Assembly: GCA_026397315.1 (NCBI GenBank)
Contig: JAPLVC010000002.1
Coordinates: 59,994-123,993, forward strand
Origin: Candidatus Aenigmatarchaeota archaeon
GTDB lineage: Archaea; Aenigmatarchaeota; Aenigmatarchaeia; QMZP01; QMZT01
Length of the DNA stretch: 64,000 nucleotides
Direction of reading: 5' to 3'
Positions 36,807-40,358 of this stretch are shown here, piece by piece. The position numbers and the translations under genes were made by a program. Numbering within the stretch: the first letter of the stretch is position 1; the number at the start of each line of letters is the position of its first letter. The notes beneath the pieces are model-generated. The model was given only the letters and a program-made list of their open reading frames with translations, had not been told where the DNA came from and did no database searches.

Positions 36807-38927
36807 ATGAAAGGCCTCAAGCCCATTGCTTTTTTTGCACTGATTGCGATTATTTCAGTCTCGCTTTTCCAGAGCGCCTTGGCTGCAGGCATAGAGGACA
36901 ACGTCCTCAAGAACCCTGCTAACGTTAACGAACTCGTGGTAAACATCACGCAGTCCGGCACCATCATAACCGACGGCCAGCCGACCAAGATAACCGTCAG
37001 CATGAACATCCCGCAGGACGACGACAGGCAGGACGTCTCCATGGACGTCACGCGCATTAGGGACGAACTGGGGACAGACTTAGGTATTATAGAGCAGGCA
37101 AGCCCGGGAAACAGGTTCTCTTACAGCATCGAAGGCGTCGTCAAGTCGAGGGCGAGCCATCTCACTTCGTTGCCAGCGTCGTATTCGATACCGAACGACG
37201 TCAAGGCCTACATGCAGCCCACGAAAAACATCCAGTCCGGCGACGCCAGCATAAAGAGCCTCGCCCTGGAAATCACCAAAGACTCAAAGGACGATTTCGA
37301 GCGCGTCGCGAAGCTGGCCATGTGGGTGCACGACCATCTCGATTATGACCTTTCATATTCGGGCAGGAATCTCGATGCTTTGTCAGTCCTTGCAGGCAGG
37401 CGCGGCGTATGTTCGGAATATACGACGTTGTTCATTGCCTTCGCGCGCTCGATGGGCATACCCGCGAAATTCGTGTCCGGCTATTCATACGGCGAGCGGG
37501 GATGGGAGCGCCATGCGTATTCGGAAGTTTATCTCGGCAAATGGGTGCCAGTTGATGCGTTATGGCTCGAAATCGGATACATGGATGCGACGCACATAAA
37601 GTTCGGCAGCCATCTCGACAGCGTTGTCAAGAACAACGTCGAAATCACCGGCTACAACGTCAACAGCATAAACTGGGCCGATGACGACGTGGTCTTATCC
37701 ACCATAACTTATTCTCCCGTCGCTAGGGAGGACGCGTACAACCTCACAATATCCGGCCAGAACTTCAGGCGCGGCGACGAGGGCGTCGTCTCGCTCACGC
37801 TGGTGCCGACGGAATTCATAGTGGGCAGCATCGTACTGGAGCCGTGCGCTGGCGATTACAGCGTCGTCGACGTGATAGACAAACAGCAGAACGTCATCCT
37901 CAGGCCAGGCGTCAGGGAGCAGGTCTACTGGAAGATTAAAATCAGCGAAGACCTGCCCAATAACCTTTTGTTTACCTGTCCGCTCACTCTCAATTCAAGA
38001 TCGCTAGCTCTGCGCACGACGGACGCGTTCGTGAACACCCAATACCCGTCGCGCGGGACGCGCAGCCTTTCGGCGCATGTCGCTTCCAGCATGGTCGAGC
38101 TGGGCGACGAGCAGAAAGTCTACATAACGGTCAAGGACCTGGCGAAAGACGCGAAAGTCGGCGTTATAGCGGGCGACGCGCAAGAGGAATGGAGCATCGA
38201 CGGCGATTTCCAGACTTTCTTCACGTTCAAGCCAAAAGAACTGGGCGAGAAGGAAGTGGTGGTTTACCTTTCGGAAGGCGAGCTCGTCTCACTCAAATAC
38301 ACGGTCACCAGCCAGATGCAGGTCACACTCGACGACGTGACCGTGCCTGCGTACCTTAAAGTCGGCGAGAAGAAAAACGTTTCCGCCTTCATAGTCAACC
38401 ACGGCTCAAGCGAGGAAAGCGTGCACATGAACATCAACATCGACGGCACGGACAACTTCGCGAGCTTCATGTTAAAGACTAAATATTTCGTATCGCTCCC
38501 AGTGTCATTCAGCGAGAAAGGCGCCAAGACCATTCTCTTTGAGGCGTCGGTGGCGGGAATGAACATATCGGAGGCGCATGTCATAGAGGTTTACGAAGAG
38601 CCGGTCATAGTTTACGACACTGACTACAGCGACGGCAAGGCGATCCTGAAGCTCGACGTGCGCAATTCAAAGGCCAAAAATATTTCGATAACGATAGCAG
38701 GGCAGGAGAAGAAGCTGGTCGAGGCGTTCGGCAAAACGTCAGTCGAATTCGCGCTCGCGCCCGGTCAATACCAGATGGAGATCAACTGCTACGACGTCGC
38801 CGGCAATCGATACGTTACGCCTGCGACCATCGAATTCCGCGAGAAGAACTTCTTCGAGCAGCTGCTAGCGTTGCTAAATGAAATGATAGCGCCTCTATTT
38901 TCACTTTTTAACAAGGCCGTGCAGTGA
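36807..38927 (+). CDS. Secreted/surface transglutaminase-like protein
   Basis: Signal peptide; GVCSEY..ARSMGIPAKFVSG, HAYSEVY, WVPVD triad; beta-rich C-terminal domains. Confidence 0.85.
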   Translation: MKGLKPIAFFALIAIISVSLFQSALAAGIEDNVLKNPANVNELVVNITQSGTIITDGQPTKITVSMNIPQDDDRQDVSMDVTRIRDELGTDLGIIEQASPGNRFSYSIEGVVKSRASHLTSLPASYSIPNDVKAYMQPTKNIQSGDASIKSLALEITKDSKDDFERVAKLAMWVHDHLDYDLSYSGRNLDALSVLAGRRGVCSEYTTLFIAFARSMGIPAKFVSGYSYGERGWERHAYSEVYLGKWVPVDALWLEIGYMDATHIKFGSHLDSVVKNNVEITGYNVNSINWADDDVVLSTITYSPVAREDAYNLTISGQNFRRGDEGVVSLTLVPTEFIVGSIVLEPCAGDYSVVDVIDKQQNVILRPGVREQVYWKIKISEDLPNNLLFTCPLTLNSRSLALRTTDAFVNTQYPSRGTRSLSAHVASSMVELGDEQKVYITVKDLAKDAKVGVIAGDAQEEWSIDGDFQTFFTFKPKELGEKEVVVYLSEGELVSLKYTVTSQMQVTLDDVTVPAYLKVGEKKNVSAFIVNHGSSEESVHMNINIDGTDNFASFMLKTKYFVSLPVSFSEKGAKTILFEASVAGMNISEAHVIEVYEEPVIVYDTDYSDGKAILKLDVRNSKAKNISITIAGQEKKLVEAFGKTSVEFALAPGQYQMEINCYDVAGNRYVTPATIEFREKNFFEQLLALLNEMIAPLFSLFNKAVQ

Positions 38928-38981
38928 AAAGTTTAGTTTCTGAACCGCATGGTATTTAAGGCGGAAACTGAATAAATTTTC

Positions 38982-39035
38982 ATGGTCAAAAAGAAAAGCG
39001 CAAAGAAGAAAGAATCCGGTTGCTCGTGCTGTTAA
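38982..39035 (+). CDS. Leaderless polycysteine leader peptide 1 (MVKKKSAKKKESGCSCC)
   Basis: TTTAAG at 38955, 27 nt before ATG; 3 Cys in the last 4 codons; upstream of cysteine synthase. Confidence 0.75.
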   Translation: MVKKKSAKKKESGCSCC

Positions 39036-39046
39036 GTTCCTAGCGC

Positions 39047-39080
39047 AACCGGGCCACCGGTTTATTCTTAGTTTTTTTAG
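39047..39080 (+). terminator. Hairpin plus T-tract after leader 1 (putative attenuator)
   Basis: AACCGG-gcca-CCGGTT followed by TATTCTTAGTTTTTTT. Confidence 0.55.
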
Positions 39081-39126
39081 TTCCTAGAGGTAGTTCCACT
39101 TTTAAAGCTTGCTCCCAAGTATGCTT

Positions 39127-39201
39127 ATGACGACAGTAAACGGCATTACCGAGAAGAGAACGCTGGCCAGAAATTTTAGTTCTTGCTGTTGTCGTTGTTA
39201 A
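39127..39201 (+). CDS. Leaderless polycysteine leader peptide 2 (MTTVNGITEKRTLARNFSSCCCRC; alternative ATG at 39121)
   Basis: TTTAAA at 39101, 26 nt before ATG; 4 Cys in the last 5 codons. Confidence 0.8.
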   Translation: MTTVNGITEKRTLARNFSSCCCRC

Positions 39202-39209
39202 TTTTGAGC

Positions 39210-39233
39210 ACTGGCTTTTTACACCGGTTTTTT
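39210..39233 (+). terminator. Weak hairpin plus T-tract after leader 2 (putative attenuator)
   Basis: ACTGG-ctttttaca-CCGGT-TTTTT; shares CACCGGTTT with the unit-1 element. Confidence 0.5.
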
Positions 39234-39263
39234 GGAAATTTAAAAAATTTTGGAGGTCATAAC

Positions 39264-39290
39264 ATGAAAAAGGGTGAACGACTCTGCTGA
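39264..39290 (+). CDS. Overlapping micro-ORF MKKGERLC occupying the SD of the cysteine synthase gene
   Basis: GGAGG at 39252-39256, 7 nt before this ATG; out of frame with cysteine synthase. Confidence 0.5.
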   Translation: MKKGERLC

Positions 39291-40203
39291 AGACGGAGCG
39301 AAAAGGACATACGACAATATACTGGACACGATAGGCAACACGCCGCTTGTGAGAATAAACAGGCTGAATCCTAACAAGAACGTGACCATATACGCGAAAT
39401 TCGAGGGCACCAACCCCACGGGCAGCATAAAGGACCGCATCGCCTTGAAAATGATAGAGCAGGCGGAGAGCGAAGGTGTGCTGGTTCCAGAAAAAACGAT
39501 AATAGAGCCCACGTCGGGCAACACGGGCATCGGCCTGGCGATGATAGGCGCGGTCAAGGGGTACGAAGTCGAGATAGTGATGAGCGAGGCGGTTTCTATA
39601 GAGCGCCAGAAAATGATACAGGCGTTCGGCGCAAAAATAACTTTGACTGAAGCCAAGCACGGCACGGACGGCGCCATAAGGAAAGCGAGGGAGCTTGTGG
39701 GCGCGAACCCTGAAAAATATTTCATGCCCGACCAGTTCTCGAACGAATACAACAGGATTGCCCATTATAAAACGACTGCGGAAGAGATATGGCGCGACGC
39801 TGGTGGCAAAATCGATTACATGGTTTCGGCCATCGGCACGTCAGGAACGATCATGGGCGTAGGCATGGGCCTGAAAGAGAAGAACAAAAACATAAAAATC
39901 ATCTGCGCCTATCCGCACAAAGGGCATTACATACAGGGACTGAAAAACATGGAGGAAGCGATGGTGCCGTCAATATACAGGCCGTCCGAAATCGACGAGA
40001 ACATAACGGTCGACAGCGAAGTCGCCTTCGAGTGGGCCCGGCGAATCGTGAAAGAAGAAGGCATATTCGTGGGCATGAGCAGCGGGGCCGCGATGTACGC
40101 GGCAGTCGAAGTCGCGAAGAAAATAAGCGGAGGCACGATAGTGGTGATATTTCCGGACAGGGGGGAAAAATACCTGAGCACAAAATTATTCAATGGCGGA
40201 TGA
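39274..40203 (+). CDS. Cysteine synthase (O-acetyl/O-phosphoserine sulfhydrylase, CysM/CysK family)
   Basis: IGNTPLV, NPTGSIKDR PLP lysine, EPTSGNTGIGLA, GTSGT, GMSSGAA, PDRGEKYLST. Confidence 0.95.
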   Translation: MNDSAEDGAKRTYDNILDTIGNTPLVRINRLNPNKNVTIYAKFEGTNPTGSIKDRIALKMIEQAESEGVLVPEKTIIEPTSGNTGIGLAMIGAVKGYEVEIVMSEAVSIERQKMIQAFGAKITLTEAKHGTDGAIRKARELVGANPEKYFMPDQFSNEYNRIAHYKTTAEEIWRDAGGKIDYMVSAIGTSGTIMGVGMGLKEKNKNIKIICAYPHKGHYIQGLKNMEEAMVPSIYRPSEIDENITVDSEVAFEWARRIVKEEGIFVGMSSGAAMYAAVEVAKKISGGTIVVIFPDRGEKYLSTKLFNGG

Positions 40204-40216
40204 TGAGAAGAAGAAA

Positions 40217-40358
40217 TGGACCGGTCGGGATTTGAACCCGAGGCCTCCACCAATTTGGAATTCGTAAGCCAGGAAGCGTAAGCTCCTGGTTTTCGATTAA
40301 GCCTTTTGAGTAAAAGGCTTATTGCCAAGGTGGCGATCTACCGCTGATCTACCGGCCC
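40217..40358 (-). tRNA. tRNA-Ala(GGC) with a 70-nt canonical 37/38 intron (40253-40322)
   Basis: GGGCCGG/CCGGTCC acceptor with G3-U70; CCACC-TTGGCA/T-GGTGG; BHB central helix TTGG/CCAA. Confidence 0.93.

Follow-up and report, generated by a model that had tools for sequence, protein, structure and literature searches.

Leader-peptide control of amino-acid biosynthesis is a textbook bacterial device that needs ribosomes close behind the polymerase. In the enterobacterial transcription attenuators leuL, thrL, hisL, trpL and pheM, cognate codons lie in a short leader open reading frame (ORF), and a hairpin with a U run stands between this ORF and the gene. The closest published system to the one described here is that of the mycobacterial polycysteine leaderless small ORFs (Ms5788A type, 'Cys ribulon'; Canestrari et al., 10.1101/834739), in which the peptides vary, the Cys codons are kept and cysteine is proposed to be sensed by ribosomes stalled for lack of Cys-tRNA. 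The locus considered here lies in a stretch of 64,000 nucleotides (nt), referred to as the window, from Candidatus Aenigmatarchaeota archaeon (GCA_026397315.1, contig JAPLVC010000002.1, forward strand, 59,994–123,993; GTDB lineage Archaea; Aenigmatarchaeota; Aenigmatarchaeia; QMZP01; QMZT01), in which a gap of 350 nt before the gene of a cysK/cysM-family cysteine synthase (cysK) holds three mini-ORFs ending in Cys (ORF1, ORF2 and ORF3). An earlier note, made from the letters of the window, had proposed these as a cysteine-sensing attenuation system and knew of no described archaeal Cys-leader; in agreement, a literature search for archaeal leader-peptide attenuation found no example. The best explanation of the whole, with a probability of roughly 60%, is that ORF1 is an independent gene, that ORF2 and the element following its stop codon are the leader of a cysK cassette, and that ORF3 is a second checkpoint.

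Like the mycobacterial ORFs, the mini-ORFs of the window are Cys-codon ORFs, predicted to be leaderless, that stand before a cysteine-metabolism gene, and for them too sensing by stalled ribosomes may be proposed. Unlike their mycobacterial counterparts, they are archaeal, have TATA-box promoters, adjoin an intron-bearing tRNA gene and share no sequence homology with them; the Cys codons of the leader lie at its extreme C-terminus, a CAYTGG motif begins 6–9 nt after the stop codon, the duplex hiding the ribosome-binding site that was shown in mycobacteria is unsupported, and a second Cys-codon ORF overlaps the start of the gene. The likeness to the enterobacterial attenuators extends to Leu and Thr leaders found in the same lineage (see below), but no four-segment alternative of terminator and antiterminator was found here, the hairpin after ORF2 has only 5 bp and the transcripts are predicted to be leaderless. 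For termination by the archaeal polymerase, oligo-U is sufficient and no hairpin is known to be required.

The three Cys-ending mini-ORFs described in the earlier note were all confirmed in the sequence (Table 1), as were the TATA-like boxes, starting at 38955, 39101 and 39239 (27, 26 and 25 nt before the respective ATG codons), and a repeated 9-mer at 39055–39063 and 39222–39230, 20 and 21 nt after the stop codons of ORF1 and ORF2. Leaderless transcription of these mini-ORFs is predicted from the spacing of the boxes. The third box, which had been raised as a caveat, is real, and its spacing fits a transcript beginning at the ORF3 ATG. Each copy of the 9-mer forms the 3' arm of a small hairpin with a T run behind it; as a word the 9-mer is unremarkable, since nine copies were counted genome-wide against about eight expected. 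The common architecture attributed to units 1 and 2 (ORF1 and ORF2 with their flanking elements) was found to consist of no more than a promoter, a Cys tail and a small hairpin before a T run in each. Two features had escaped the earlier description, namely a strong Shine-Dalgarno (SD) sequence before ORF3 and the −1 register of ORF3 relative to cysK.

ORFs of 6–60 codons that start with ATG and carry at least three Cys among their last seven residues are rare in the genome holding the window, designated G000 (1.05 Mb, 7 contigs, 91% complete; other G numbers denote comparison genomes and L numbers comparison loci or contigs): the whole genome has 29, two of them in the 350-nt gap, and three further members that were placed all fall inside coding regions. 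The ORFs of the gap are each very short and the structures beside them thermodynamically unremarkable, as would be expected of chance open frames in an A/T-rich spacer, but they are rare genome-wide, enriched before cysK and conserved between genera and between families, which leaves such a reading a negligible probability; given the rarity, chance is excluded as the origin of the gap ORFs.

The comparison with relatives was based on the upstream DNA of cysK. Among the 91 genomes of the order the gene was located in 21, and among the 371 of the phylum in 73. Cys-tailed mini-ORFs were found upstream of cysK in 10 of the 21 cysK-bearing genomes of the order (G000, G003, G017, G011, G020, G053, G054, G056, G060 and G032), and the enzymes encoded behind them are not orthologous, with identities of 40–57% to the G000 enzyme and of only 54% in one genome of the same genus. 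The enrichment in relatives that the earlier note had proposed to look for was indeed observed: at 65 cysK loci of the phylum, 11 Cys-tailed ORFs were counted in 26.6 kb of same-strand upstream DNA, compared with five in 175 kb of flanks and opposite strands, and their density in the 450 nt before cysK was about 14 times that in the rest of the same loci (Poisson P = 6e-10, a value that is overstated because the kin genomes, of about eight lineages, are not independent). Only two of 70 mostly bacterial cysK loci carried a Cys-tailed ORF, one in a bacterium of the candidate phyla radiation (CPR) and one in a Methanosarcinales archaeon. Outside the phylum, Cys-tailed ORFs of 7 and 8 codons were noted in L055, from a metagenome-assembled genome (MAG) of Moraniibacteriota, and in L058, from a Methanosarcinales MAG, ending 163 and 143 nt, respectively, before the conserved G-N-T-P motif near the CysK N-terminus.

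The Cys tail is the only feature common to the leader peptides of the order, to which the lineages of G000, G032 and G060 add a shared preceding L-A-R/G-x-x-S stretch. Reading of the upstream sequences revealed an A/T box about 25–30 nt before the ATG in most leaders, replaced in G053 and G054 by a short leader bearing an SD sequence. ORF2 itself has four Cys within its last five codons; in G003 the last of these is lost to an early stop, the Cys triplet being kept. The 3' half of ORF2 can be aligned with the G017 leader, which carries an ORF1-like peptide and has the appearance of a fusion, its 5' half being ORF1-like and its 3' half resembling unit 2. The earlier claim of a Cys-codon leader system before cysK is upheld for ORF2, the like of which recurs in the order before non-orthologous cysK genes and which is probably, on this comparative evidence, a cysteine-sensing leader; it does not hold for ORF1, which stands as an independent micro-gene.

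The CAYTGG motif begins 6–9 nt after the stop codon in 9 of 12 Cys units, and in G000 a genome-wide scan for the motif after short ORFs returned unit 2 only. The Cys codons always abut the stop, so that a ribosome with a late Cys codon in the A site would cover the first bases of the motif, a reach that is predicted from the footprint sizes of bacterial ribosomes. When a sequence model was built from the Cys tail and the motif, it recovered its training set in the order and, outside that set, a single convincing new site, which proved to lie behind Leu and not Cys codons. At this site in G007 (L186, G007:C14, minus strand, oriented 1445–1600), an ORF of 27 codons ends in nine Leu codons and is followed by CATTGG 8 nt after the stop, then by an SD sequence and a leuA-type gene (HMGL-like 2.5e-59, LeuA_dimer 3.6e-12, HCS_D2), and it is considered a candidate archaeal leucine leader. 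Similarly, outside the window in G000 (C7:38779–38832, minus strand), a leaderless ORF of 17 codons with ten Thr codons and a final Cys lies directly upstream of thrS (C7:36981–38615), with GC-rich inverted repeats after its stop codon. The presence of cognate Cys, Leu and Thr leaders in one lineage is hard to explain except by codon-level sensing. Since the Cys and Leu leaders share the post-stop motif and the cassettes are short enough to be moved into reporters, the proposal is directly testable.

In G000 the CAYTGG motif is the 5' arm of a 5-bp hairpin, of which the second 9-mer copy is the 3' arm, and T6 follows. Compensatory changes were observed in both units, a C-G pair of the post-stop hairpin in G000 corresponding to U-A in G017 and a G-C pair of the unit 1 hairpin being replaced by T-A in G003; by eye, an equivalent hairpin before a U-rich run is possible in G011 and in the G007 Leu leader. 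The unit 1 hairpin alone has a folding energy of −9.1 kcal/mol (z = −1.5) and was the only one flagged by the terminator consensus scan, the post-stop hairpin having a z value of −0.5. Pyrimidine tracts after the motif would be able to pair with the SD sequence or the start codon in G017, G011, G020 and G000. A conserved alternative (antiterminator) helix was not found among the leaders, whose minimum-energy folds vary. A T-box-like pairing of the motif with the acceptor end of a tRNA was considered and rejected, the motif reading TGGC in most Cys leaders (TGGT in one) and the tRNA-Cys of the relatives having U before CCA.

ORF1 has a different history. Homologues of the transglutaminase-like gene upstream of it precede the ORF1 family in G003, G004, G002, G017 and the metagenome contigs L205 and L206, and thereby provide its syntenic anchor. 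In L205 and L206, which were retrieved by scanning metagenome contigs with the upstream protein, an ORF1 homologue with the same hairpin and T run stands behind this gene and is not followed by cysK. According to a DNA search of the order, two genomes of the genus of G000, namely G004 and G002, also contain ORF1; again it has no cysK behind it, and it is followed directly by a convergent tRNA gene whose 3' end is identical to that of the tRNA-Ala gene behind cysK in the window. An A/T box at the P1 distance precedes ORF1 in G003, L205, L206, G004 and G002 as well. The six ORF1 sequences differ by many synonymous changes (in Lys, Ser, Val and Cys codons and in the stop codon), and the peptide, including its G-C-S-C-C end, is kept, which argues that ORF1 is a translated micro-gene under purifying selection. 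Judged from this synteny, ORF1 is not a cysK leader but a separate micro-gene that predates the arrival of cysK, and unit 2 together with cysK (about 39080–40205) is a cassette inserted between ORF1 and the convergent tRNA-Ala gene, which marks its right edge. From these findings, it seems possible for a biosynthetic gene to move together with its own sensor as one cassette; they also bring to light a conserved, translated, Cys-rich micro-gene of 16–17 codons, of a kind likely to be overlooked in standard annotation. Weak DNA matches to ORF1 at six other loci were located in Lys-rich coding regions and were hence attributed to chance.

The same evidence bears on the arrangement favored in the earlier note, a stacked double attenuator of cysK in which unit 1 and unit 2 would operate one after the other and give a steeper response. 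The two units lie on the same strand and are alike in having a TATA box, a Cys tail and a T-run hairpin, and some read-through from unit 1 into unit 2 is possible; but unit 1 occurs without cysK in four other sequences, is older than the cassette and has the strongest of the terminator-like sites in the gap, with a GC-rich stem of 6 bp followed by T7, and two Cys-tailed units upstream of cysK were seen in no other examined genome except the near-identical G003. The stacked arrangement is unsupported because ORF1 is independent and present without cysK, and it is considered highly unlikely.

Additionally, an ORF1-like ORF was noticed in G045 (L212, G045:C3, minus strand, oriented 1492–1554): it is led by an SD sequence, has 20 Lys-rich codons with six Cys, and lies between a peroxiredoxin-like gene on one side and ferritin- and glutaredoxin-like genes on the other, the names of these neighbors being taken from their translated sequences only. 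A reading that draws on such settings holds that the mini-ORFs, ORF2 included, encode functional Cys-rich micro-proteins with a thiol, metal or redox function, which lie near cysK for metabolic reasons and have no role in cis. It is favored by the ORF1 family, which is clearly a gene with its own promoter and terminator and has nothing downstream to regulate in G004 and G002, by the surroundings of the close relative in G045 and by the ORF1-like peptide within the G017 leader. However, conservation among the ORFs linked to cysK is confined to the Cys tail and the motif after the stop, the remaining peptide being lineage-specific; the run-type Leu and Thr ORFs before leuA and thrS fit codon sensing and not a peptide function; and the last Cys of ORF2 is lost in G003 through the early stop while its triplet is retained. 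A micro-protein function for all of the ORFs is accordingly regarded as rather improbable.

If the favored explanation is correct, ORF1, with its own promoter and its hairpin/T7 terminator, would be expressed as a stand-alone translated micro-gene, and ORF2 would be transcribed from its own TATA box as a leaderless mRNA, on which the ribosome would meet four Cys codons within the final five sense codons. Under a shortage of charged tRNA-Cys, the ribosome would stall in the ORF2 tail, its front edge reaching the CAYTGG arm 7 nt past the stop, and the stall would alter the fate of the transcript, either by read-through at the small hairpin and T6 or by exposure of a downstream translation start. 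In the preferred form, stalling would block the hairpin and raise cysK expression, as in bacterial leader-peptide control. ORF3 would then be a second, translational checkpoint, at which ribosomes recruited by the SD sequence start on an ATG that is offset from the cysK frame by one base and meet a Cys codon just before the stop.

Several results weigh against this explanation. With a single hairpin right after the stop, the simplest kinetics give the opposite sign, an upstream stall freeing the hairpin so that termination rises, and the sign of the regulation can be argued either way. Archaeal termination is not known to depend on hairpins. The predicted structures of both units were no more stable than those of shuffled sequences (z from 0.0 to −1.9). 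Pairing of the post-stop tract with the SD sequence or start codon gained no support, the duplex energies being no better than those of shuffles in 8 of 10 leaders, and pairing between the 5' end and the post-stop region gave at most a suggestive difference between cognate and non-cognate combinations (permutation p = 0.076). ORF1 is a Cys-tailed gene in its own right, and the same could therefore hold for ORF2. No cysE above threshold was found in G000 (best match 35 bits, cut-off 210), so the direction and substrate of CysK in the cell are uncertain, and the cysS and tRNA-Cys genes of G000 were examined and have no Cys leader.

The start of cysK is organized in a way that invites comparison with prfB, the gene of bacterial release factor 2, which is controlled by an autoregulatory +1 frameshift. 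A start module common to 16 genomes of the phylum, from at least six families, begins with an SD-led ATG and continues through GGTGR, a spacer of four bases and a single codon to TGY; cysK is invariably in the +1 frame, and the GTG precedes the Cys codon by exactly 11 nt. Inspection by eye places an SD-like stretch about 5–7 nt ahead of the out-of-frame ATG in most of these sequences; in the window, the SD sequence is spaced for the ATG at 39264 and not for the GTG at 39274. The overlapping ORF is itself Cys-rich in two relatives. A more specific alternative for ORF3 is suggested by this layout, in which ribosomes start at its ATG and a slow Cys codon in the A site causes a +1 shift into the cysK frame, so that CysK is made mainly under Cys shortage and translation stops after eight codons when Cys is ample.

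Evidence for such a shift comes from five of the 16 genomes, in which no ATG, GTG or TTG lies upstream of the Cys codon in the cysK frame, the frames being otherwise open for about 300 codons. In G142, G232 and G175, a TAG interrupts the cysK frame 2–5 bases before the Cys codon; in G244, TAG replaces the GTG and the sole start, a TTG, follows the Cys codon by 7 nt; in G132, a start is lacking altogether. A shift could rescue all five genomes only if it occurred at the Cys codon or the codon preceding it. The preceding codon is NTT in 10 of the 16 genomes, where re-pairing as TTT would be possible as at the bacterial prfB site, and in all 16 the Cys codon is created by a T that occupies a third codon position in the cysK frame, despite the low usage of T-ending codons in G000 (TTT, 27% of Phe codons; GGT, 14% of Gly codons; TCT, 17% of the four TCN Ser codons). 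Stand-alone copies of the short peptide core of ORF3 differ by synonymous changes, which likewise favors the frameshift. On the other hand, G000 has an open GTG at 39274; CTC precedes the Cys codon (TGC) in G000 and G003, and in G000 it cannot re-pair one base on; the SD-like GGTGA may just contain the GTG start; and rare non-canonical starts are possible in these five genomes. Frameshifting was not chosen as the best explanation of the locus because of the open GTG and the non-slippery CTC of G000, and as such it is judged unlikely; that the module is a programmed +1 frameshift site, serving as a cysteine gauge at the start of cysK in the 16 Aenigmatarchaeota genomes including that of the window, can be put forward only tentatively from the sequences compared.

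The ORF3 module shares with prfB a short frame-0 ORF before a main ORF in the +1 frame, a slowly decoded codon where the shift would occur, an SD-like element a few nucleotides upstream of it and, in most relatives, a CTT or TTT codon preceding it. It differs in that the sensor would be a sense (Cys) codon and not a stop codon, in the spacing of the SD-like element (4 nt compared with 3) and, in G000, in the CTC before Cys and the available GTG start. Viral cases aside, the −1 frameshift of Sulfolobus fucA1 is the only cellular frameshift demonstrated in archaea (2021 review, PMC8211752); it resembles the present case in that an archaeal gene depends on a frame change for its complete product, and differs in its −1 direction, its slippery heptamer and the lack of any link to amino-acid supply. 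If true, the module would be without precedent both as an amino-acid-sensing frameshift that controls its own biosynthetic gene and, in archaea, as a cellular +1 frameshift, and would combine a frameshift gauge with an upstream leader-peptide sensor on the same gene.

Stand-alone ORFs of 8–11 codons with an ORF3-like core (G/S, E/G/D, R/S, F/L, C) were observed 80–130 nt upstream of cysK in L162 (G232), L165 (G175), L137 (G214) and L143 (G184), in addition to or in place of the overlapping copy. In L153 (G141), an SD-led ATG at the start of cysK is followed by an immediate in-frame TGA, after which normal N-terminal residues continue in the same frame. A scan of G000 for more SD-led out-of-frame starts gave uninformative noise.

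Table 1. Coordinates of the features in and around the gap before cysK (positions in the window).
Feature	Position	Strand	Details
Transglutaminase-like protein, 706 aa, upstream neighbor	36807–38927	+	Pfam Transglut_core 2.7e-25
TATA-like box P1	38953–38960	+	27 nt before ORF1 ATG
ORF1, 17 codons, Lys-rich, end G-C-S-C-C, stop TAA	38982–39035	+	Read from sequence
Unit 1 terminator-like hairpin, 6-bp stem (39047–39052 / 39057–39062), then T7 (39072–39078)	39047–39078	+	Match in terminator-like scan
TATA-like box P2	39100–39107	+	26 nt before ATG 39127; aligns with box before G017 leader
ORF2, 24 codons, last five C-C-C-R-C, stop TAA	39127–39201	+	Cys codons 39184–39192 and 39196–39198
Post-stop element: CAYTGG (39209–39214), 5-bp hairpin (39210–39214 / 39224–39228), T6 (39228–39233)	39209–39233	+	
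TATA-like box P3	39239–39247	+	25 nt before ORF3 ATG; identical in G003
SD sequence GGAGGT	39252–39257	+	6 nt before ATG 39264, 16 nt before GTG 39274
ORF3, 8 codons, core G-E-R-L-C, Cys codon 39285–39287, stop TGA 39288–39290	39264–39290	+	Overlaps cysK start, −1 register
cysK/cysM-family cysteine synthase, 309 aa	39274–40203	+	GTG is the sole canonical in-frame start
tRNA-Ala(GGC), 70-nt intron, convergent	40217–40358	−	Rfam tRNA and ARAGORN with introns allowed

An additional in-frame ATG is available to ORF2 at 39121, and the end of ORF2 is separated from the start of cysK by 72 nt. An Rfam search of the gap returned no family at the gathering threshold or at E values up to 1, the PreQ1 and algC matches being at chance level. 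The tRNA gene beside cysK was considered as a possible tRNA-Cys, which was ruled out by its identity as tRNA-Ala; it was missed by ARAGORN in default mode, and long introns occur in the tRNA genes of G000.

The cysK product was assigned by Pfam PALP (3.4e-73) and by NCBIfam TIGR01136 cysKM (380.4 bits, cut-off 344.15), and it scores just under the cut-offs of both equivalog models, cysK and cysM. It is 96% identical to the G003 enzyme and 84% identical to that of G017, and its nearest relatives outside its own lineage are bacterial (79%, Bacteroidia MAGs). In six genomes of the phylum, tRNA-Cys (GCA) lies directly upstream of cysK on the same strand (L119 in G102, L122 in G103, L123 in G097, L128 in G140, L148 in G142 and L153 in G141). 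At four further loci (L005 in G015, L006 in G010, L120 in G313 and L147 in G136), a domain of about 130 aa with a D-G-H-H-R motif precedes cysK or continues into it in frame; this domain looks ParB- or sulfiredoxin-like, and in G313 a Cys-rich ORF of 22 codons stands before the pair formed by the domain and cysK.

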